A stretch of 64,000 nucleotides of DNA from a virus. Below are positions 1,686-45,992 of the stretch, in pieces (within the stretch, counting starts at the first letter, position 1; each line of letters opens with the position of its first letter). Location: positions 17,908 to 81,907 of IMG/VR virus record IMGVR_UViG_3300045974_000399. One strand, written 5' to 3'. Made by a program: the position numbers and the translations under genes. The notes under the pieces were generated by a model. That model did no database searches. It had not been told where the DNA came from and worked only from the letters and a program-made list of their open reading frames with translations.

Positions 1686-3812
1686 TTACATCATTCCTTG
1701 GCAGCAGCTATGCGGAGAATAAAACTGACAAGTGCAAGGACAGGTACAGGTACAAGTGCAAGTACATGAGCAAAACTGAACGTTAGGCGGGTTAGAGTCA
1801 GAATATGGAACATACACAGGATTACTCGGGTCCGAAGTAAACGTTAGCTTTAGTGCATTCCCCAGAATCATATCCTTAGCTGGAACCAGAACATGGGCGG
1901 CAGCTGCATCCGTTTTATCGTATGCTAGTAAATTATACTGACCTGCCAATTTTTCAGCAGAAACCGGAGGGGCGATACCGTTCAAAGTAACTGTATTAGT
2001 TGCATTGTCCAGAGCTATGGTTAGGTAGCTACCTACAGCAATATTAAGAACATCCTCCGTGCCCTTGGCTATGATAGGTGTTTTACCTGGAGAGGCTATC
2101 GTTTTATACGCCAGCAACGTGCCGAGATTTGTTATGGTCATGGTTTTATTTACAGGGTCTGTTATTACAGCAACACCTGTACCACCATTTACTACCAGAG
2201 TATCCTGTAAAGCATTCATGTTAATTTGACCCTGCGAAGCATAGGCAGGGGTACTATTCGAGACCGCAATAGAGTGAACGTTCTGAGTGGTGTTTGTAAC
2301 CGTTATGGTCTCGGTAGCTGGATCTGTGGCTAAACCTATTCCCGGTCCAGCGCTAATTGCTCTCCGTGTTCCAACAATTCTACCCCAGGTAGAGTTACCT
2401 TCGTAGATAAGATAATCTCCAACGTTAAAGTGAACCCCACCCATTGTACCCTGAAGAGATATCTTCCAGTAGTGACCCTGACGAAGTTCAGTAAATATCG
2501 TGGTTGGTGTAGCGGGAGGATAAACTCCAGAGGAAGCGTCCCAAAGCCCTTTGTATAAGACATAGGGTAGCTCTGTGTTGTCAATCTTGTCCCACAAGCC
2601 AGTTCCTTCGTATACCAGCCAGTCACCTGTTTGGTAAGCTACGTTATTCAAGACCCCACCTACAGCGATAACGTAGTAACTACCGGGTGTTACTGCGTTG
2701 TTTGGATATCCTGCTGCGCCGGCATAAGTTCCATCTGGATTCTTGATATTCCAGCGACCTGCATATACCAAACCGGCAACGTGAGAGTAGGGCAATGACC
2801 AGATTATGATGTTTGATTTATCCGCCTCATTGTTAGCCGCCATGTTTACAACTTGGCTGGTGGGTATGATTGTTCCTGTTGTGGTTATCCCACAAGGATC
2901 CGAACTTTCCGGGGTAGCACCTGTTGCACCCAGCAAAGATAAGGCTTCATACAGCACCTCAAACTTACCTGTAAGTGCACCTGAACTGTGATACTTTATC
3001 GCCCGACATTGACCCTTACCTCGACCGGAATAGATATACATGAACGCCCAGTCAACAGAAATAAGTGGTGGCGGGGAGTCTACGATTAACGCAGAAAACA
3101 AGGTAAACGTATTGTGTACTCCGTCACCTGCCCCTGGAGAAGTTTCAGGAACGTCAGATGTAACACTCGTTACGGTACCCTGATATAGCAAGGAGCCATT
3201 CAAGAGACCCCAAGCTAGTGGGCCAGTATCAGACATTGCATACCGGGTAACGATTGCAGGATGAATCTTGGTATTCGTGGGAGAGTAATCCTTTGTTATC
3301 CCATGATTGACCACGTAGGCGTTACTTCCCGTCTTGGCAGGATGAGGAAGATCCCCATAGAAGTTGACTCGGGGTAAACTCATGGCCCAAGTCAGAGTCA
3401 AGTCAACTACTGAGCCCAAATAAGGAGATAATAAGACACAGTGCGTCTTATATATCTGACCAGGCTGCTTGACTATAGGCTCCGCGTAACAGGTAAGGGC
3501 AAAAAGTATCTGGACTCCAGCATTATTGGGGTCATCAATGTATAGACCGATTTCCCCAATAAACAAAGGACCTAGACCGGATGCGGTAACAGGTACAGTA
3601 CATACAAAGTCCATTACCTCATCCGTTAAAACGTCTACTGTGCCTATTGTCCCCTCGTACACTATTTCCCCATGAAGTGCAGTGTCCTCTTTCACAGGCG
3701 AGTAGTTTGTTCCGCTGCCTACCTTGAAGTTGAGTATCTGAAGCTTTATCTGCTTTGAGTTCGCATCAAGTATTCTTTCGTACCCGATGGCTGTTATCTG
3801 CATAGTGCTCAT
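1686..3812 (-). CDS. Tail fibre protein with Cys-rich C-terminus
   Basis: N-terminal baseplate-attachment-like segment (FKVGSG...IGEIGLY...LFA), repeated G.W.....YP / GD.L.Y.G...W modules, ends CSCTCTCTCTCPCTCQFYSPHSCCQGMM. Start moved to ATG 3812 (GGAG RBS). Confidence 0.8.
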   Translation of the reverse strand: MSTMQITAIGYERILDANSKQIKLQILNFKVGSGTNYSPVKEDTALHGEIVYEGTIGTVDVLTDEVMDFVCTVPVTASGLGPLFIGEIGLYIDDPNNAGVQILFALTCYAEPIVKQPGQIYKTHCVLLSPYLGSVVDLTLTWAMSLPRVNFYGDLPHPAKTGSNAYVVNHGITKDYSPTNTKIHPAIVTRYAMSDTGPLAWGLLNGSLLYQGTVTSVTSDVPETSPGAGDGVHNTFTLFSALIVDSPPPLISVDWAFMYIYSGRGKGQCRAIKYHSSGALTGKFEVLYEALSLLGATGATPESSDPCGITTTGTIIPTSQVVNMAANNEADKSNIIIWSLPYSHVAGLVYAGRWNIKNPDGTYAGAAGYPNNAVTPGSYYVIAVGGVLNNVAYQTGDWLVYEGTGLWDKIDNTELPYVLYKGLWDASSGVYPPATPTTIFTELRQGHYWKISLQGTMGGVHFNVGDYLIYEGNSTWGRIVGTRRAISAGPGIGLATDPATETITVTNTTQNVHSIAVSNSTPAYASQGQINMNALQDTLVVNGGTGVAVITDPVNKTMTITNLGTLLAYKTIASPGKTPIIAKGTEDVLNIAVGSYLTIALDNATNTVTLNGIAPPVSAEKLAGQYNLLAYDKTDAAAAHVLVPAKDMILGNALKLTFTSDPSNPVYVPYSDSNPPNVQFCSCTCTCTCTCPCTCQFYSPHSCCQGMM

Positions 3813-3840
3813 ACTGCTCTCCTTTTTGGTACGAAATTTC

Positions 3841-5679
3841 CTAGCCAAAATCCACTATTTTTCGAGACTTAACATCAGATAACTTTGCCACGTTTCTGCA
3901 TAAATACTGGATAGTAACACCTTCTTCAATCTCAGAGCACTCAGGAGTAATTTCCACTAGTCTAGGTATCCCGAATATAACCGCGTTATAGTCAGGATAT
4001 GGAGAGTACAAAACCATCTCAGAAGGAGCAAGCATGTAAAACATATCTACTACGCTCTTATCTAAAGGTAAATGCACAATATCATCTCGGGTATATGGCC
4101 TAAGATGATTCCAGTAGCTACGATATGTAGCCGGTGTAGTTATACTTGATATGAGCGCCCAGGATGAGGGGTTAGTTGTAGGATACTGATTCGTAGACAA
4201 TGCCCCTGATGCTACAGTGCACTTGTAAAATTTGCCCGAGGTCAACTCATACCTAGAGGTAGCATAAGGTTTTCCCGAGCCAACGTGAACTATATCTCCT
4301 ATATTGTACGGAATGAAAGGGTTCCAGATACCTTTGTGGGCTGCGGCGTCCGCGTCGGTCCAAATCAGACTGGAGGATCTAACTGACCACTTACTTAAGG
4401 TATCCGCGGGAGTAACATTGGGATTTATATGACCAATTCTAGGGTCTCCTGCGGTTAAGGTAGGATAGTGTAGATTAGACCCCATCATAAGATATATCGG
4501 TGCATAGTTTACAGTGCACACGTAGTCAATACCTGGGTCATTCTCATAAATTTCAGTCGTATAAATATTAGTTACAGGATTTACTGGTAGAGTCTCAGGA
4601 CGATAAAATAGCAGATAATTGCGGGTGTATAACTGAGTCAGAGTCCACGTGTCTGTAGGATCGCGCTGTTTCAACAGGAAGTTCAACAACAGCATGAATT
4701 TATCTGTGCCAGCCACAGACTTATACCTAGAAAGGTATATAACATAGTTAAGAAATGTTCCTGATAAAAGCCAGCTGAATTTGCTGAGGTCAAATCCCAA
4801 AAGTTTAGAGGTACGTGAAACTATTTCTGGATGAGTATCAATGGTTATCTGCCTAAGCCTACCTAGCTCTACGATAGGCATATCTACCTGGTCAAGAAGT
4901 GTTTCATCCGAAGCGGAAATATAGTCGGCAATGAACGGAGAATCCTGCATCCAAGGGGGTGCTTGTTTCTTACGAAGCGGAATATACTCCCACACTTTAA
5001 CGTATATATTCCAAGAAGTAACCGTAACAATAGAGTCTGGATCTACTCCACCTACAGAATCAGAGTCAACGCCACCAATGGAATCAACGCTTACGGTTAA
5101 ACTTGTTGGACTAGAAGAGGTTACAAATCCCTCAACAAAGGTCTTACTCTTTCCAGGTAGGGTACAGGAACAACGCACTCTTTCATTTACTGCTATTGTG
5201 TTCCCTGTAACTACAAACGTTAAACTACCATACCCGATATTATGAGAGGTCGAACTAGTTATTGGGGTGGTATAAAAATCCTTCCGAAAGGAAGCCGATG
5301 ACTCATGCCGAGAAACGCACACAAAGTGTATATGACCATACAGAACAATCTCATTCTCAGAGTACAGATGTCTAAATATCCAAGGTCGAGGTAAATCCCA
5401 GGACAGTCTATTCCAGCGACGCGCTAAGAAATCGGTCTTAAATAGCGTACTCGGGTTATGCGCTATCACGCACTCATAAACTGAGTTGTCATATTTTACA
5501 TTTTGTCCCACCTGGTATAGTTTTGTCCATATAGCGGGGTTTGATTCTGGAGCTTTCCCAACATTACTTTCTACCGCTGTATATATGAATCCGCTCCGAA
5601 GTACTACTGCGTTTATCAGATACGCTGTGCCAATATTCCAGGGCGTAGTAATTCCAGGTTTCCATATGTCCGCTCGCAT
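3841..5679 (-). CDS. Baseplate wedge / tail protein with carbohydrate-binding (CBM5/12-like) repeats
   Basis: Several W....Y..G..V.Y....Y.C...H repeats; central LLGFD...GT segment; lies between wedge gene and fibre. Start ATG 5679 with AGGAGG. Confidence 0.65.
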   Translation of the reverse strand: MRADIWKPGITTPWNIGTAYLINAVVLRSGFIYTAVESNVGKAPESNPAIWTKLYQVGQNVKYDNSVYECVIAHNPSTLFKTDFLARRWNRLSWDLPRPWIFRHLYSENEIVLYGHIHFVCVSRHESSASFRKDFYTTPITSSTSHNIGYGSLTFVVTGNTIAVNERVRCSCTLPGKSKTFVEGFVTSSSPTSLTVSVDSIGGVDSDSVGGVDPDSIVTVTSWNIYVKVWEYIPLRKKQAPPWMQDSPFIADYISASDETLLDQVDMPIVELGRLRQITIDTHPEIVSRTSKLLGFDLSKFSWLLSGTFLNYVIYLSRYKSVAGTDKFMLLLNFLLKQRDPTDTWTLTQLYTRNYLLFYRPETLPVNPVTNIYTTEIYENDPGIDYVCTVNYAPIYLMMGSNLHYPTLTAGDPRIGHINPNVTPADTLSKWSVRSSSLIWTDADAAAHKGIWNPFIPYNIGDIVHVGSGKPYATSRYELTSGKFYKCTVASGALSTNQYPTTNPSSWALISSITTPATYRSYWNHLRPYTRDDIVHLPLDKSVVDMFYMLAPSEMVLYSPYPDYNAVIFGIPRLVEITPECSEIEEGVTIQYLCRNVAKLSDVKSRKIVDFG

Positions 5680-16751: not shown

Positions 16752-18590
16752 TTACTTCACGACGGCGATTGTGACACCAGTTCTGGTAAGGATGAACCTG
16801 ACGTAAGCGCGCTTGAGCGGCATTCTGGGGTTCAGGTAAATGTCGATGTTGAGGTTACCTGCATCGGCATCGTCCTGCGTGTTGTTCGACTTGTCGCAGA
16901 TAATATCGTAGCTGATGAGTCCCTCTCCCAGTTTGATGGGGTCAAGCAGCGCAACCAGCCGGCCGAGAACTTCCTGCTTGAGAGCGTCTGACAACGGATC
17001 GAACACCGTATGCAGGATGGTGATCTCAGTGTAGAAAGCCAGGAATAGCATGAGGCGCCGGATGCTAATGGTTGAAAGAACGGTTTCACGGAGCTGAAGG
17101 GTAACGTCACCCCAAACAAATATCCCCAGATTCGGGATTACCCGGGTCGGATTGATCTGACTCTCAACCAGAAGATCCCGAGCTGCTTGGTCATAGGTAG
17201 CGCCTACATCCAGAATGTTGAGGTACGCACGCTTGATACCTGCCGGAGCAAACCAGGCTGCGGTGGTTCGGTCGGTTCGTGCGAAGATGGCCCCGAGATG
17301 CCCAGAAGGTGGAATCTGGATGACCGTATTATTGAAGGTGTCCTTGACCACGTACCATGGGGTATACAGAGCCCCATACGTAGAATCAGCATTACCGAGA
17401 TACGCTGCATCCGTACGATACTCGATGGGCTTGGTGGTAAGGTCGTAGCGGTCACCCTGAGCTGCACTGGAGATATCCAGAATGGCAAAAGCATCCTGAC
17501 GGTCCCGAGCCACGTTCATCATCTCTTTCTGAACTGCCGGGATGGTGTAGCCGCCGTTGATGAGGATGCTTGTTACTACACGCTCCTTACTCCGGTACAA
17601 CTGCCAACCACTGATTTTCTTGGTGGGAGTAGCAAACACATCCGTAGGGAACTCATCCACACCGTTGAGGATATCCGCCATTTCACTAGAGGTGAAACCC
17701 AAGCCAGAGTCTCCGCCTTTAAGGATGGCAAGATGCGTGTCGGTAGCGTCCTTGGAGTAGACTGCGGGCGTACCTGTCGGAGCGGGAAGCAAGTATTCCG
17801 AGGCCGCAGCATTGGCACGAACTCGTATGTACTTGGACTTACTGTTGACAACGTCTTCGATGAACTGCTGGGCACCCATACCGCTCAACTGCTGCTTGAG
17901 GCTGACAACGAAGGTCTCCAGAACTTTCGGACTGGTTGCTACGTCAGCAGCACCCACCACACTCAGACGGAAGGTGTTGGGATTCGCCGCATCAGTTTTT
18001 CCCTTGACGTCGCTGATGATAACACGATAGTCAGAGGTACTGGTACGCGGGTCAACGCCGAACACCCAGAACAGGTCGATATTGTGGGTTGTAGCGCTGA
18101 GCGTGGCATCAATGTCGGTATCGAGAGGTTTAGCGAAGAAAGTGCTGGGGTTGTAGGGGTCAACAAACTTTCCAGTTGTCCAGGATTCGAGGCCAACCGT
18201 GACAACGGTAGTGCCCTGAGCGCCCTGCTGTCCTTGAGGACCTTGCGGCCCAAGCTGGGGCAGCGAGTTAAGTTTCACTGAAAGTCCGCCAAAGCGGGCA
18301 TCCTTGTGAACACGGGTTACGAGAAGTGTGCGCATCTCGGTGAGGGCTTCAAGGGCGCAGTAAATTCCGTAATGCGACCCTGCGGCGGCAACGTTTACGT
18401 CAGGCGTACCGAACGTATCCAGCATCTGCTGGGTGCCTGTAATAGGCACAACCTGATCTACAGGCCCCTGCTTGGCAAAGATACAGATGGATCCAACTGA
18501 GGTATCGGGTGCTGTAGTTCCAGCCTTTTCCCCAGTGCGATCTTCTTCAGCAATGTAGACGCCAGCGCTTGCATGAATATTAGCTTTCAT
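16752..18590 (-). CDS. Tail sheath protein
   Basis: GVY..E.D, GP, FG.P, PPSG, WFAPAG..R, INP, VWG..TL, RRL motifs. Confidence 0.95.
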   Translation of the reverse strand: MKANIHASAGVYIAEEDRTGEKAGTTAPDTSVGSICIFAKQGPVDQVVPITGTQQMLDTFGTPDVNVAAAGSHYGIYCALEALTEMRTLLVTRVHKDARFGGLSVKLNSLPQLGPQGPQGQQGAQGTTVVTVGLESWTTGKFVDPYNPSTFFAKPLDTDIDATLSATTHNIDLFWVFGVDPRTSTSDYRVIISDVKGKTDAANPNTFRLSVVGAADVATSPKVLETFVVSLKQQLSGMGAQQFIEDVVNSKSKYIRVRANAAASEYLLPAPTGTPAVYSKDATDTHLAILKGGDSGLGFTSSEMADILNGVDEFPTDVFATPTKKISGWQLYRSKERVVTSILINGGYTIPAVQKEMMNVARDRQDAFAILDISSAAQGDRYDLTTKPIEYRTDAAYLGNADSTYGALYTPWYVVKDTFNNTVIQIPPSGHLGAIFARTDRTTAAWFAPAGIKRAYLNILDVGATYDQAARDLLVESQINPTRVIPNLGIFVWGDVTLQLRETVLSTISIRRLMLFLAFYTEITILHTVFDPLSDALKQEVLGRLVALLDPIKLGEGLISYDIICDKSNNTQDDADAGNLNIDIYLNPRMPLKRAYVRFILTRTGVTIAVVK

Positions 18591-40303: not shown

Positions 40304-40936
40304 TTAAAAGTCGATATTCTGTTGCTTAACTATATCACGGGTCCTGAAGTTATACGCTATGAGCTGACCCATACCCTTCTTATCCCGCGTTATGCCTCCA
40401 TCCAGTACTACCTTTGTCCTCTTTCGGGCTTGACTCTTTATTACACTCTGCTTAGTTGGAGTGTGACCCTCCAATATAGTAGTATGAGTATCCACGTTAA
40501 CTATATCCAGATCACCATGATGAAGCACATACTTCTTTGTAGTAACAACTGAAGGCATCTCACGCAGAAGCTTTATATACTTTCGAGGTATCTGCTTAAC
40601 TTCACTAGCTCCAAAGCTTTGAAGAGTCTCTGGATACTTTTTCTCAAACTCAACCCGATGCACAGGCATTGTCCAAGCATCAAGAAGTTTCTGGTCATTG
40701 TTCCCGCGAATGAATACTACTTCTTGGCCTCTGTCCCGCAATGCTATCAGGATATCCAAAACGCCTTTAGAATCAGGGCCCTTGTTGATATAGTCCCCAA
40801 GAAAGTACAGTTTATCAATAGCCCTAAGCTTTATCTTGGATAACAGCTTTAGAAGTGTCTTGGGACATCCATGCGTGTCACCTATCGCCCATTTATTTCT
40901 AGTTTCAATACTTGCCAACGCTCTGATAACTTTCAC
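40304..40936 (-). CDS. Metallophosphoesterase (PPP / lambda phosphatase-like)
   Basis: GDTHG, GDYINKGPDS, RGNND, HG, GHTP motifs. Confidence 0.88.
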   Translation of the reverse strand: MKVIRALASIETRNKWAIGDTHGCPKTLLKLLSKIKLRAIDKLYFLGDYINKGPDSKGVLDILIALRDRGQEVVFIRGNNDQKLLDAWTMPVHRVEFEKKYPETLQSFGASEVKQIPRKYIKLLREMPSVVTTKKYVLHHGDLDIVNVDTHTTILEGHTPTKQSVIKSQARKRTKVVLDGGITRDKKGMGQLIAYNFRTRDIVKQQNIDF

Positions 40937-41499
40937 TATGTCCTCCTTGCCATTCCCTCTGGTCTGGATACGTTAAGACCCTTAGAGTCTCTGTCGTAGC
41001 GTTCCTTAGGGAAGGTCTTGAATATATCCGAGATGTCTTCGCACTCAATCTTACTAAATAGCATTTCATCGGTAGTACGAGAGTTCTTTGATGGCCGTAA
41101 AAGTAAATGCACAGGAATAAGCACGTTATCCCCGAATACATCCTGAATGGCTTTACAACGAGTACGGCCTTCATGCCCACCTGTCTGCCAAAACTTATCC
41201 GCTATAACCCAATGCAGGGTTAAGAATGGATTACCCATCGGTGTACCCTCCTCAATACATCTTTTCATGAAGTTTGAGTTAGGGTACTCAGTTCTAACTT
41301 TAGCCAGAAACAGAAACTCTTTGGGCTTCATATAGCAGGTTACACCTTCATACTCTATATTCTCATTGAATGGCGTCTGACCCACTCCATAACGAGCATT
41401 AAACAGTTGATCCATGCAGGGCATACCAGCTATGTACTTATTATCCCCTACTCGGGGCTTGAAGGAGTTGGAAAGTATTCTATATCGGGTCACACGCAT
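40936..41499 (-). CDS. ParB/Srx-like domain protein
   Basis: P.L......W...GHEGRTR..A.......IPV; TGATG coupling to TerL-C stop. Confidence 0.45.
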   Translation of the reverse strand: MRVTRYRILSNSFKPRVGDNKYIAGMPCMDQLFNARYGVGQTPFNENIEYEGVTCYMKPKEFLFLAKVRTEYPNSNFMKRCIEEGTPMGNPFLTLHWVIADKFWQTGGHEGRTRCKAIQDVFGDNVLIPVHLLLRPSKNSRTTDEMLFSKIECEDISDIFKTFPKERYDRDSKGLNVSRPEGMARRT

Positions 41500-43019
41500 C
41501 AGCATCTCCTTCGTATCGTCCCCATTGCCTTACCGTCAGATGCTAACTGAGAACCTACACTTGCGCCTTTACTACTCCCCATCTTTGTTGTAACTGAACC
41601 CAGCGCGCCACCCCCTGATGATACTGCGTCAGGACCATTAAACAGGTCTTGATTCTCATCTGCCAGAAGTCTAGTCATAGCCAAGCAATATGCACGGAAC
41701 ATATCATCATTAAGATTTTCGCCTTTCAGCACCTTAGACCCAGAGTCCTGAACGGTAATACATTGAAGAACAAAGTGGGCGACAGGGGCCTTAGAGAAGC
41801 AATTAGGATAACTGGCGTGGTCATACTCCATTATCTCATCTTTTTCCCACTCAGGCCGCGGTAAAGATACTTCCTTGTCTTCTAGATAGGCTTTGGCAAT
41901 GCCCATTTCAGAATACGATACTGAGTACTGATGAGCATCTATCTCATGGGCTGCTGCGATATCCTGCAACAGCTTTATAGATTGCCACCTGTCAGCACAA
42001 ACCATCTGTATGTTCCGGCTCTCTATCAAGGGCACGATGAGCTTGGCATACACAAGAGAGTGGTTAACTGGAACTCCAGGCAAAGGCTGTACTTCAAGAA
42101 GCAAATCAATAACTGGCTGACCGGTATCCCTGTCGATATGCGCTATGCAGCAACCAAAAGCGTTGTTTGAAAACCCTGCATCCAAAGCCAGTATGGAAGG
42201 ACGCTTGGCTCTTCGTATCTTTCCAGGGATAGCAAATCGCGTTATATCCTTTGACTTCTTATTCGTGCGCTGTCTAAAGGATATCTCTGTGGCATTCCGA
42301 TAGTTCTTAGAGCACTCCAGAACAGTCATTATATTTCGGATGAACGGGTTATTCGTCAAAGGTGGATTTGCCCCGTAGTCGCGTTCCGCTTCAACAGGGT
42401 CCTTTGTATACTCAGCAGCCAAATCTTCCCGGGTTATGTTTGGATTCATCTCCCAGGTTGGTCGGTGAAACGCCAGTATTGTATTCGTCAACTTGGCCTG
42501 CTTTACCAAGCTCATTATCTTATCACGAGCATGCGAAGGAGAACTGACGTTTGTGAAGTATGCAGTTAGGATGTTGTCGTAGCCATTTCGTATCAGCTTA
42601 TTCGCTGCTGCTCTAACAGTAAGAAGCGAACGCTCAAGCGCGATATACACCTCGCCCGCGTCATCCTTTATCTTCTTCTTCAAAGCGTCGTTATTGAACC
42701 ACCCGATCTCATCTATAGCCCCAAAGAATCTGGTTCTACCGCGTAGAGTTTTCTTGTTTGGACCCGAGGCGTACATCAGGAGTTTTCTGTGGCGATATAG
42801 GATGAACGTATCCTTAAACCGATATAGCTCTTCACCGTACCGCTCTGAGTACTCATCCAGCATTTCATGATAAGCACAATTATGAACATTTACCCCATTC
42901 GCAAAATAGTTATGATGATTCTCAACCTCTATATCGTAAACTGGTTTTAACCCCACAGAACGTATTGAAGTAACCGTTGCTAACTTTATTCTTTTACCGT
43001 CAATTTCAATCTCACGCAT
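41499..43019 (-). CDS. terL: Terminase large subunit, C-terminal part, preceded by split intein C-fragment
   Basis: 47-aa IntC ending VYDIEV...NYFANGVNVHN then Cys+1; LRGR...AIDE (Walker B), SSP, LALDAG nuclease motif; AAGGA RBS before ATG 43019. Confidence 0.9.
   Translation of the reverse strand: MREIEIDGKRIKLATVTSIRSVGLKPVYDIEVENHHNYFANGVNVHNCAYHEMLDEYSERYGEELYRFKDTFILYRHRKLLMYASGPNKKTLRGRTRFFGAIDEIGWFNNDALKKKIKDDAGEVYIALERSLLTVRAAANKLIRNGYDNILTAYFTNVSSPSHARDKIMSLVKQAKLTNTILAFHRPTWEMNPNITREDLAAEYTKDPVEAERDYGANPPLTNNPFIRNIMTVLECSKNYRNATEISFRQRTNKKSKDITRFAIPGKIRRAKRPSILALDAGFSNNAFGCCIAHIDRDTGQPVIDLLLEVQPLPGVPVNHSLVYAKLIVPLIESRNIQMVCADRWQSIKLLQDIAAAHEIDAHQYSVSYSEMGIAKAYLEDKEVSLPRPEWEKDEIMEYDHASYPNCFSKAPVAHFVLQCITVQDSGSKVLKGENLNDDMFRAYCLAMTRLLADENQDLFNGPDAVSSGGGALGSVTTKMGSSKGASVGSQLASDGKAMGTIRRRC
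42879..43019 (-). mobile_element. Split intein C-fragment (47 aa)
   Basis: Intein block F (VYDIEV) and block G (HN|C). Confidence 0.92.
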
Positions 43020-43941
43020 ATGATTTTTCCTTGACGAGGGAGCCATTACGCCGCATTACTAGGATTTTAAATTCAAATCCAGCTTCTAGGCAGGCTTTAC
43101 GTTTTCTTGTATTCACCTTTTTCTTTTGTCGCTGCGTAAAGGTACTCTTTACTTCAACGATAAGATTTAAATGTGGAATATAAATATCAGGATGGTATAC
43201 GTGTTTCTTTCTCTCAAAGGTATAGGGTATACTAGGAATACCTTTGCAGCCAATACCACACCTTATTTGAGAAGGCGATATACCTGAGGCCAGTAGATAA
43301 TCCAAAGCTTGTGGCTCATAACCTTGAATCAAAACAATTTTTCTACCCAACTTGTACTCTTTGTGATTATACGAAGTAATTAGATTCTTATCAAATAGTT
43401 CTTTATTCTGAAGTGCATGCTCAGCTCCATAGCGTTTTAACATCGTGCTTTTAATCTTTTCTCTTACCTCAGGTCTCTGTGCAGAATGTGCTACCCCGTA
43501 CTTTTTTATACTCTTCTTTTTAGCACGTAACTTAGAACAATCTGGTTCAGGACAACCTGCTATTCGTAAGTTAGAAAATATTGGTTTCCATATATGCCCA
43601 CAACGTAGACATTCTGCAGTTACTCTTTTGTTCATCCTAAGCAATAGCTTTTTGGTAATAACCCTTATTTTTTGTTTACTAAGATTTTTCAGCATTCTTT
43701 CAGTTGAAAAGCTAGAGCTATTCTTTGCCCTCTCAAGCTGGTCCTTTTGACGTTGACAGACACAGCGATATTTACGAAAATAGTAAAGGTGTCGTTCTCG
43801 AGTATCCCCGCATTCCCTACATTTAGCCTTTAAGATGCTAGAGGTTACACGCTCTAGTATTTCGTAGGTAGATACCTTGAGTATCTGCTGGACCTCAAGA
43901 AATGTTCTTTCAGTTTTTTCCTTGCGTGTTTCTGTAGGCAT
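43012..43941 (-). CDS. Free-standing homing endonuclease, PD-(D/E)xK type with zinc-finger repeats
   Basis: CRECG, CLRCGH.W, KKYGV / KRYG repeats, YHPDIYI....LIVEVKS; AT-rich; lies between intein halves. Confidence 0.85.
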   Translation of the reverse strand: MPTETRKEKTERTFLEVQQILKVSTYEILERVTSSILKAKCRECGDTRERHLYYFRKYRCVCQRQKDQLERAKNSSSFSTERMLKNLSKQKIRVITKKLLLRMNKRVTAECLRCGHIWKPIFSNLRIAGCPEPDCSKLRAKKKSIKKYGVAHSAQRPEVREKIKSTMLKRYGAEHALQNKELFDKNLITSYNHKEYKLGRKIVLIQGYEPQALDYLLASGISPSQIRCGIGCKGIPSIPYTFERKKHVYHPDIYIPHLNLIVEVKSTFTQRQKKKVNTRKRKACLEAGFEFKILVMRRNGSLVKEKSYA

Positions 43942-44018
43942 GCTGTCTCCTAGACAATCTTTGATATACCTCAAATTACGATAATCAAAGATTGTCTAGC
44001 ATTGCGTGATAAACCAGC

Positions 44019-45005
44019 CTATTCTACTACAACTTCATCACCTTCACGCAGTTCAGATACTTTCTTCCAAACTAGCCGGTTGTTCTCAAAGACACGTACC
44101 TGATGTTTATCTGTAGCAGGAAGCTGTTGATTTGTGTCTAGAGAGATTTCAAAGCATTCCTTCACACCATTATTGAATAGCTGTACCGCCTTTTCGGGCC
44201 CCTCAAGTGTCCGAAGTAAATCACCTGGGCAGATGTCTTCGATCAACTTCTTTGAGCCATCAGCTAAGGTAATCTCTGTACCTTTGGCGATACAGAACCA
44301 AGGCGACTCAGCTAGATATTCATAGAAAGGGTCCCACAGTGTTTCCTTTGCTTGTGCGTAAGTCAAAGCAACGAAAGTACCATGAAGTATTGTCCCTGCA
44401 TTTAATCCTAACAGTTGGATAGGATTCTGCAGCTTAAGAAACCTGTGGACAATGTACGCAGCAATCATGGCAATCATATGCGACTTGGCACTACGTTGCC
44501 CTGCTAGTCCAGCTAGCTCTTGATAGGGTTTAAGCTCCCCGTTGTTTATCATGTCAGAGCGCTTAGCCCCGCACTTAGGGCACTTACCATACACAAGCAG
44601 CGTTACTTTTTTCTTGAACAGCTTAAGAGAGGCGTCAACAGGAACGTTCTCAAACCACACTAAGTCAGTACAGTGTGGACAATACTCCTGAAATAATTTT
44701 GTGGGTATCTCATTCTGACGAGCAAATCCCTTAACCTTAAGGAACTCTGCCCCGTTCAAGAATGTTACAAAGTTTGGAGCAGTAGGAAGATGTGAATCAT
44801 TTATTTTTACGTCCAGCGGCACGCCCAAATCGGACTTAAGTATCGACTTAATCAGGCGATACATGTTGAACTTTACATCTGGAGCCGATACTTCGGGTAA
44901 CCGTGAACTGGTTGATGTCTGGTTAGGGTCTGTGTTTACATCTAGAAATAAATCTACTCTCTTTATTGGTACAGGTTTTACTGATTTCAGTTTTTTGCGC
45001 TTCAT
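44019..45005 (-). CDS. terL: Terminase large subunit, N-terminal part, ending in split intein N-fragment
   Basis: AGQRSAKS Walker A-like motif, QA...W, then SPWF|CIAKGTEITLADG. Confidence 0.9.
   Translation of the reverse strand: MKRKKLKSVKPVPIKRVDLFLDVNTDPNQTSTSSRLPEVSAPDVKFNMYRLIKSILKSDLGVPLDVKINDSHLPTAPNFVTFLNGAEFLKVKGFARQNEIPTKLFQEYCPHCTDLVWFENVPVDASLKLFKKKVTLLVYGKCPKCGAKRSDMINNGELKPYQELAGLAGQRSAKSHMIAMIAAYIVHRFLKLQNPIQLLGLNAGTILHGTFVALTYAQAKETLWDPFYEYLAESPWFCIAKGTEITLADGSKKLIEDICPGDLLRTLEGPEKAVQLFNNGVKECFEISLDTNQQLPATDKHQVRVFENNRLVWKKVSELREGDEVVVE
44022..44294 (-). mobile_element. Split intein N-fragment (91 aa)
   Basis: Block A CIAKGT.I.LADG...IEDI..GD; block B ATDKH; ends W....EL..GD.V then stop. 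Confidence 0.92.
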
Positions 45006-45022
45006 TTAGTGCCTCGTGGCAT

Positions 45023-45205
45023 CTATTTAGTTTTTCTTGACTTAGCTCTATTACTAGTTATCCTAGAGACATACGCCCAGTAATGAGAATCGCGTTCGCC
45101 AAACTTCTTATCGGCTTGTAACTTAGCGGCTTCCCAGTACTCCTCTAGTTTCGCAAGAGGTACTCTAGTAGATTTATGTAAAGCAAGTAGCTGATTAGCT
45201 GGCAT
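45023..45205 (-). CDS. Small helical protein
   Basis: 60 aa, GGGAG RBS. Confidence 0.5.
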   Translation of the reverse strand: MPANQLLALHKSTRVPLAKLEEYWEAAKLQADKKFGERDSHYWAYVSRITSNRAKSRKTK

Positions 45206-45220
45206 ACACGTCTCCCTGCA

Positions 45221-45475
45221 TTATACGGTTATCTGTTCACCTTGATGCCCTGTATTAGCATCCTTCGGTGGATTTCTTTTGCCTCGGGCTCCCATGCCCC
45301 TCGGCCAACCTTTTTGGCTCTTTATATCATCTTCTGTTTGTTCCATCACCTGCTCCAGCGCATCCACGTTAGGGTGTAGTGGCTCCTCATCCAATGGCCC
45401 GGACTGAGTTTTAGGTGCCATATTATAGTCGGATCCCCACCCACTTGAAGTTATTGCTACACGTTTTATTTTCAT
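45221..45475 (-). CDS. Small hypothetical protein with MK leader
   Basis: MKIKRVAITS start. Confidence 0.45.
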   Translation of the reverse strand: MKIKRVAITSSGWGSDYNMAPKTQSGPLDEEPLHPNVDALEQVMEQTEDDIKSQKGWPRGMGARGKRNPPKDANTGHQGEQITV

Positions 45476-45485
45476 GGCCACACCC

Positions 45486-45992
45486 TTAGGATTCATCTAG
45501 TGGTTCAGAGGTCTCACTGGTTAGGGTTAATTTTCTATCCAGGAATATTTTGTTCAATATCTCCAAGAAATACTCCTTTTCACCTTGACTGCTCCAGCTG
45601 TTTACTACGCATAAAGTAAGATGTGGCTTATACTCTTCATAGTCAAAGGTGAACCCGTATTTCTTACGCAAAGCTGACTGGCGTTTATCCAAACTAGGGC
45701 AGGATAGCAGAGCTACCAGTATATCTCCCTCTGAAGTCTCTGCCCAATTCTCAACCCCAGTTATGTACGCAGTGTGCATTAGAGTTGGATCAGCAGAAAA
45801 CGCATCATTATCGGTTCGCGAGTATATCTCAGTAACATGCAAGCTATCTGGATCTCTAACAGTGCAGTTAATCTGGAGCTTAACTCTGTCTATCAAACAG
45901 CAGATTGTGTTAGCGGCACTCAGTAGAGGTTTTACTGAAACATATACTCCACCGGGCGCTGCTTTGGCTAAAGTAATAGTCAGTACTCTCAT
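45486..45992 (-). CDS. acb1: 2H phosphoesterase, Acb1 / T4 gp57B-like anti-CBASS nuclease
   Basis: Two HxT motifs (LHVTEIYSR, YKPHLTL) plus G.YV, W...G..LV..L..P.L and G...DY..Y.PH.TL pattern recalled for Acb1. Confidence 0.8.
   Translation of the reverse strand: MRVLTITLAKAAPGGVYVSVKPLLSAANTICCLIDRVKLQINCTVRDPDSLHVTEIYSRTDNDAFSADPTLMHTAYITGVENWAETSEGDILVALLSCPSLDKRQSALRKKYGFTFDYEEYKPHLTLCVVNSWSSQGEKEYFLEILNKIFLDRKLTLTSETSEPLDES

Follow-up and report, generated by a model that had tools for sequence, protein, structure and literature searches.

A terminase large-subunit gene of an uncultured jumbo phage fractured by a split intein and a DUF7487 gene, with probable rejoining by protein trans-splicing

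The window analysed here is a stretch of 64,000 nucleotides (positions 17,908 to 81,907) from IMG/VR record IMGVR_UViG_3300045974_000399, an 81.9 kb sequence, estimated to be 31% complete, of an uncultured jumbo phage from a pond sample. Its gene for the large terminase subunit (TerL) is divided between two genes, the first ending in the N-terminal half of an intein (IntN) and the second beginning with the C-terminal half (IntC), and a free-standing nuclease gene lies between them. Reading of the sequence gives three consecutive minus-strand open reading frames (ORFs). A Logan contig of the source run spans the entire stretch at a depth of 91 with neither joints nor variants; as it derives from the same sample, it is not an independent confirmation. 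In the order of transcription, the locus comprises the following features:

44295..45005, minus strand: TerL N-extein, 237 amino acids; matches phrog_17415 (terminase large subunit) at E 1e-60; zinc ribbon CPxC...CPxC, Walker A motif GQRSAKS and the end ...AESPWF
44019..44294, minus strand: IntN, 91 amino acids followed by a TAG stop; Hom_end_hint and Intein_splicing matches, and a match to the Prp8 intein at E 6e-5
43950..43999, minus strand: inverted repeat with perfectly matching arms of 16 bp and an 18-nt loop; lies after the IntN stop and ahead of the nuclease ATG
43012..43941, minus strand: free-standing nuclease gene, 309 amino acids from the ATG at 43941; PF24308 (DUF7487)
42879..43019, minus strand: IntC, 47 amino acids from the ATG at 43019; matches positions 118-155 of Intein_splicing; blocks F and G, VYDIEVENHHNYFANGVNVHN
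41499..42878, minus strand: TerL C-extein, 459 amino acids followed by a stop; matches phrog_17415 at E 4e-147; Cys+1 (CAYHEM), Walker B motif FFGAIDEIGW and nuclease domain

The upstream ORF as a whole (45005..44019, minus strand; 328 amino acids) consists of TerL in residues 1-237 and IntN in residues 238-328 and terminates with the TAG at 44021-44019, while the downstream ORF (43019..41499, minus strand) carries IntC and the remainder of TerL. The two lie in the same frame, yet more than 25 stop codons separate them. Together they hold all features of the TerL class, namely the phrog_17415 match, Walker A, Walker B and a C-terminal nuclease domain, with Walker A encoded by the first gene and Walker B by the second. 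The C-extein covers positions 474-937 of the phrog_17415 profile, and its matches to the TerLs of phages NCTB and PaBG, at 42% identity, begin at residue 58-59. According to tblastn comparison with annotated TerLs, the nearest relatives belong to jumbo phages of 250-295 kb: NCTB, PaBG, Lu11, Dickeya JA and Erwinia Y3/Alexandra. Translation of IntC most probably starts at the ATG at 43019, since AAGGA lies upstream of it and the start forms an 8-nt overlap with the nuclease stop (ATGCGTGA); the alternative first in-frame ATG at 43046, which would yield an IntC of 56 amino acids, lacks a Shine-Dalgarno sequence.

The residues that characterize a class-1 intein are complete. Cys1 directly follows the N-extein (SPWF/CIAKG, the slash marking the splice junction) and opens IntN in CIAKGTEITL (CIAKGTEITLADG); block B contributes T61-x-x-H64 (ATDKHQV), and the half closes with the acidic tail ELREGDEVVVE. 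At the other end, IntC terminates in ...NGVNVHN/CAYHEM (VYDIEVENHHNYFANGVNVHN/C), providing the His-Asn pair and Cys+1, and the ending VHN/C recurs in six related loci. Assignment of the HINT fold is based on profile matches and PDB sequence matches for each half and on colinearity with cis-splicing mini-inteins. Among solved inteins, IntC is matched by the Spl DnaX mini-intein (E 3.6e-7) and IntN by the Prp8 intein listed above. Aligned to the contiguous mini-inteins of three relatives (P0140, P0256 and P0184), IntN and IntC are colinear with them and no block is missing; the end of IntN and the start of IntC fall in one short loop after the ...D-VVVE strand, which is the canonical point of endonuclease insertion and of splitting.

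The insertion site can be placed exactly because intein-free TerLs run through the junction without a gap. In more than 45 such proteins the site is uninterrupted and reads SPWF-xx-YH, and the N-extein is colinear with them up to residue 237. The TerL of NCTB, for example, is a protein of 678 amino acids that continues without interruption as ...LLESPWF-KK-YHALL.... Searches by tblastn with the two exteins placed residue 237 of the N-extein next to residue 2-3 of the C-extein, both in 39 TerLs from IMG/VR and in those of NCTB, PaBG and the Dickeya and Erwinia phages. The predicted product of splicing would be a TerL of 696 amino acids with the junction SPWF-CAYHEM. ORF reading bears out the coordinates, lengths and junctions given by the first-pass annotation, a model's reading of the DNA letters alone: a Walker A half ending SPWF/C with a 91-residue IntN and a stop, and a 47-residue IntC ending VHN/CAYHEM ahead of Walker B. 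The comparison with intein-free homologues that it recommended is the one that fixed the site. Its description of the halves as acidic and basic stands for IntN (net charge -5, with the acidic tail) and fails for IntC as a whole, which has a net charge of 0.

The split intein is not confined to the window. Although a word-based protein search with IntN returned only the window itself, a HMMER search over 1.84 billion cluster representatives gave 467 hits; among the best 150 of these, 33 are N-terminal TerL fragments that end, after W[FY]/C, in a homologous IntN of 91-104 amino acids. These 33 cluster representatives share at most 50% identity pairwise and, together with the window, form the set of 34 on which conservation was assessed. 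Median pairwise identity among the 34 IntNs is 45% and the minimum 27%, while Cys1 and His64 are present in 100% and Thr61 in 97%; all are net acidic. A contiguous mini-intein at or next to the SPWF site was found in three relatives only. Two related inteins lie a few residues off the site, one at SPWFKAYH/C (P0201) and one within ...TLKN/C.../CAFF (P0184), which suggests site sliding or independent insertion.

Both halves were recovered together in six further IMG/VR loci (L096, L100, L103, which is the same locus as L102, L105, L109 and L112), located through a DNA pattern that combines the junction with the DNG motif. Each has TerL-N with IntN, an intervening ORF, an IntC ending VHN/C, and TerL-C. 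The intervening ORF is DUF7487 in L100, L103, L105 and L109. In L096 (3993-4697, minus strand) and L112 (1929-2600, plus strand) it is an unrelated ORF of about 225-235 amino acids, for which no significant Pfam match was obtained and only a weak I-HmuI NUMOD-like hit at E 0.03. The split intein thus pairs with at least two types of nuclease gene. Two of the loci depart in detail: in L103 (reverse strand, oriented 3237-4072) a frameshift divides the DUF7487 gene into two ORFs, apparently a sign of decay, and L109 (772-1542) has an additional ORF of 257 amino acids between IntN and the nuclease gene. The ORFs containing IntN and IntC share one frame in five of the seven loci (window, L096, L100, L105 and L112); were the loci independent, which they are not, this would have a chance probability of about 0.045. 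The shared frame might be a relic of how the insertion first took place.

Occurrence of the intein is scattered among related terminases. In a maximum-likelihood tree of C-extein residues 55-400 from 43 TerLs, the seven intein-bearing genes require at least 5-6 gains or losses, and three of the occurrences have sisters with an empty site: the window pairs with L055 (support 99), L105 with L084 (99), and L112 plus L096 with L066 (99). Such a distribution fits a homing element or repeated loss, and the patchy extein tree may be read as an indirect sign of homing.

The intervening gene of the window matches PF24308 with 122.3 bits against a cut-off of 27, and each of its 386 homologues carries the same domain. 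The protein is composed of two Cys4 zinc ribbons, two KYG..H..Q repeats and a C-terminal nuclease domain. In 26 homologues at 30-45% identity, the motif E209...P251-D252...E263-V-K265 is invariant, and the Cys4 ribbons, the KYG..H..Q repeats, QGYEP, YHPD and EVK are invariant or nearly so. Neither the single sequence nor a profile matched any PDB sequence. The AlphaFold model has a mean predicted local distance difference test (pLDDT) score of 89.9. A Foldseek search with it gave nothing at E<=0.001, with only weak PD-(D/E)XK hits, while the VIA structural matches of the C-terminal domain are TnsA (Z 8.8; root-mean-square deviation 3.6 over 116 residues), Vsr (Z 6.2) and I-Bth0305I (Z 5.8). 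As modelled, the fold is that of a restriction-endonuclease-like PD-(D/E)XK enzyme. A Vsr-type or EDxHD active site, in which Asp, His and a further Asp take part and the His is the general base, was considered and rejected because the conserved columns show the classical E...PD...ExK arrangement instead; nor is the site of the GIY-YIG type. DUF7487 is likely to be a homing endonuclease. No paper mentioning DUF7487 was found in the literature searched.

The arms of the inverted repeat that precedes the nuclease gene (43999-43984 and 43965-43950) are predicted to fold as RNA at -32.3 kcal/mol (z -5.2). The 3′ arm takes in the initial two bases of the nuclease gene's AGGAG ribosome-binding site. 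Hairpins occupy the equivalent position in L103, L105 and L109 and also in L100, in which the ATG forms part of the stem. The position of the hairpin suggests a function in controlling the nuclease gene. The sequence TAATTTG or TAATTT is found in or near the hairpin loop in the window (43966-43983), L100, L103 and L109. As a general promoter motif TAATTTG was discarded, the heptamer occurring once only on the coding strand of the window. Scans for sigma-70 promoters and terminators gave fewer hits than shuffled sequence.

The reading that we favour, and hold to be very probable, is that of a fractured TerL gene: a class-1 mini-intein has been cut in two by a DUF7487 homing-endonuclease gene, and the two parts of the terminase are joined by trans-splicing. 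In the proposed course of events, a mini-intein would first have come to sit in a PaBG/Lu11-like jumbo-phage TerL, after ...SPWF in the part that separates Walker A from Walker B, and a PD-(D/E)XK gene of the DUF7487 type would have entered it at the canonical endonuclease-insertion loop, leaving two genes. The TerL halves would be translated separately, with the overlap at the IntC start probably coupling the second to the end of the nuclease gene. IntN, which is acidic, would then associate with the N-terminal strand of IntC, which is basic, to form the HINT fold, and protein trans-splicing by Cys1, Thr-x-x-His, His-Asn and Cys+1 would restore the full-length terminase with a continuous ATPase domain. 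The nuclease, for its part, probably cuts intein-free TerL alleles in co-infection, so that the whole cassette would be copied in (homing), and its translation is probably restrained by the hairpin over part of the ribosome-binding site.

Several points weigh against this reading. Both intein halves score under the Pfam gathering cut-off, as half-domains do, and basic charge in IntC is confined to its first 26 residues (+3). Because the record holds about 31% of the genome, a second, intact TerL could lie elsewhere. Loci with the intein and loci with an empty site were fetched with different probes, which inflates the patchiness of the tree. Finally, the stretch has been found only in the source DNA run and in no RNA run. 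A first alternative is that TerL functions as two chains without a peptide bond between them, the intein halves acting as a mere non-covalent dimerization handle or the TerL halves reassembling by themselves in the manner of the endonuclease-split NrdA of Aeromonas phage Aeh1. Fractured genes that contain an endonuclease and no intein do function (discussed in Dassa et al. 2009, PMC2677866). However, Cys1, the block-B Thr and His, the terminal His-Asn and Cys+1 are conserved across homologues at 27-57% identity, and a mere handle would not need conserved splicing residues. Moreover, a HINT domain of 138 amino acids remaining in the middle of the ATPase core, with Walker A on one side and Walker B on the other, would probably disturb it. 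A two-chain terminase is therefore unlikely.

A second alternative holds that the gene is simply broken, the phage being defective or the intein decaying, and that no working terminase arises from this locus. The record is, after all, a metagenomic fragment, and the frameshifted nuclease gene of L103 demonstrates that parts of the cassette do decay. Against this, the phage is abundant in its sample to judge from the depth, none of the three ORFs is interrupted and each has a good start context, and the same split with conserved catalytic residues is seen in 33 diverged clusters and six loci, which makes a broken gene very unlikely. Rejoining of the halves before or during translation, by a nuclease-bearing intron or a ribosomal bypass that would yield a contiguous cis-splicing intein, an objection of which RNA splicing had been named by the first-pass annotation and to which the common frame of the two ORFs lends some colour, is barely credible on sequence grounds, given that no Rfam intron matched at E<=1 within 41000-45500 (the sole matches being chance microRNA models on the palindrome), that the IntN stop and the nuclease ATG are only about 77 non-coding nt apart and the nuclease stop overlaps the IntC start, that IntC owns an ATG and a Shine-Dalgarno sequence, and that a bypass of about 1 kb is without precedent.

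Trans-splicing of a fractured gene being the preferred account, a further and more ambitious proposition is that the split state is selected rather than merely tolerated and, jointly, that DUF7487 constitutes an undescribed, widespread family of homing endonucleases. Trans-split synthesis might have been co-opted, since 33 of about 36 clusters are split and three contiguous, and since the nuclease genes that accompany the split are of at least two unrelated kinds and include one that has decayed. If this were true, separate synthesis followed by trans-splicing might delay or titrate terminase assembly until late infection. We regard this joint proposition as doubtful.

TerLs of this family have inteins at other sites as well. 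Contiguous inteins interrupt the Walker A P-loop (GQRxGK/C...HN/S) in L005 (4183-7377), L051 (2223-5036), L085-L087, L090, L091 and L093; that of L005 has the size of a full-length intein and contains about 370 inserted amino acids that by eye resemble the LAGLIDADG type. The Dickeya phage JA29 likewise has a mini-intein in the P-loop. Two more sites, one at Walker B and one in the N-terminal zinc ribbon (HN/CPRCS), are distributed among L067, L073, L090, L091, L100, L109, P0162, P0131, P0144 and P0170, and P0162 is apparently split at the Walker B site, the protein ending in an IntN that follows CVDEH/S. Since L100 and L109 carry a second intein at Walker B besides the split one at SPWF, some terminases would need two or three splicing events. 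With four insertion sites, PaBG-like jumbo-phage terminases are intein hot spots. Beside the terminase cassette of the window, two flanking minus-strand ORFs resemble, by eye, a metallophosphoesterase-type phosphatase (40304-40936; GDTHG...GNND) and a 2H-phosphoesterase with two H-x-T motifs (45486-45992).

Protein engineering makes heavy use of split inteins, and there is an active search for new pairs that are fast or orthogonal. The present family offers at least 33 diverged, canonically split Cys1/Cys+1 pairs of natural origin with known native junctions (Phe or Tyr at -1, Cys at +1), and its size is sufficient for consensus design and orthogonality screens. In addition, the unannotated DUF7487 acquires a likely role as homing endonuclease. 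With respect to phage biology, the locus adds a further well-documented essential late gene that would depend on protein splicing and introduces no new principle.

Comparison with known systems separates what is familiar from what is not. The first-pass annotation had taken the locus for a separate, conventionally split pair. The pair indeed matches no solved or characterized intein, comparison of its halves with the TerL inteins of the PDB gave no significant sequence match, and identity with a described intein was not encountered; it is, however, not a singleton and belongs to a large family. The literature search turned up no account of a TerL intein that sits at the SPWF site and is canonically split, nor any that gives DUF7487 as its nuclease. 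The layout was already known in 2009; the large split-intein family was found in no paper.

That fractured phage genes with intervening endonucleases are an established phenomenon, as the same annotation noted, is documented by Dassa, London, Stoddard, Schueler-Furman and Pietrokovski (2009, PMC2677866), who described genes fractured by split inteins and free-standing endonuclease genes, including gp41-1, NrdJ-1, IMPDH-1 and NrdA-2. The window shares with these loci the three-gene layout, the phage origin and the position of the split, which falls between blocks N4 and C2 in the loop where endonucleases insert. Its halves of 91 and 47 amino acids fall within the published ranges (IntN 88-105, IntC 33-54 amino acids; PMC2677866), and its IntN is likewise acidic. 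Of 16 endonuclease 5′ untranslated regions in fractured genes, 15 were reported to have hairpins, and the 3′ ends of the endonuclease genes overlap the downstream gene by 6-69 bp in 15 loci (PMC2677866); in the window, too, a hairpin precedes the endonuclease ATG and the downstream gene is overlapped, here by 8 nt. The differences concern the host protein, a jumbo-phage TerL interrupted after SPWF; the hairpin, which lacks the TATAAATA late-promoter box; and the nuclease. While the endonucleases of the 2009 collection are of two types, GIY-YIG and Vsr-like (PMC2677866), the window employs DUF7487, a protein that has zinc ribbons and whose active site is the classical E...PD...ExK. Like I-Bth0305I and other Vsr-like (EDxHD) endonucleases and the N-terminal nuclease of TnsA, the window protein would combine a restriction-endonuclease-like C-terminal catalytic domain with N-terminal DNA-binding modules. 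It differs from them in having no sequence match in the PDB, in a middling fold similarity to Vsr and I-Bth0305I (Z 5.8-6.2), and in using E...PD...EVK in place of the His-based Vsr/EDxHD site.

Inteins in large terminases are themselves not new. Contiguous ones have been noted in the TerLs of PaBG-like ("Lupandier") and Dickeya/Erwinia jumbo phages (PMC7412058) and of mycobacteriophages. Those of the PaBG-like, Dickeya and Erwinia phages are class-1 inteins in the same TerL family as that of the window; in contrast to it, they are cis-splicing and reside in the Walker A P-loop (GQRxGK/C), about 65 residues upstream of the SPWF site. The 2009 collection includes one terminase locus, a T4-type gp17 that is atypically split and has an IntC of 122 amino acids (PMC2677866). 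GOS-TerL, AceL-TerL and the consensus Cat-TerL resemble the window intein as naturally split inteins of phage large terminases from metagenomes with Cys+1. The first-pass annotation had pointed to split TerL inteins with very short N-terminal fragments, and the characterized TerL split inteins are all atypically split: in these three, which reside in T4-type gp17, the break follows block N1 and leaves an IntN of 25-37 and an IntC of 104-122 amino acids, whereas the intein of the window is split canonically into 91 and 47 amino acids and interrupts a TerL of an unrelated lineage.

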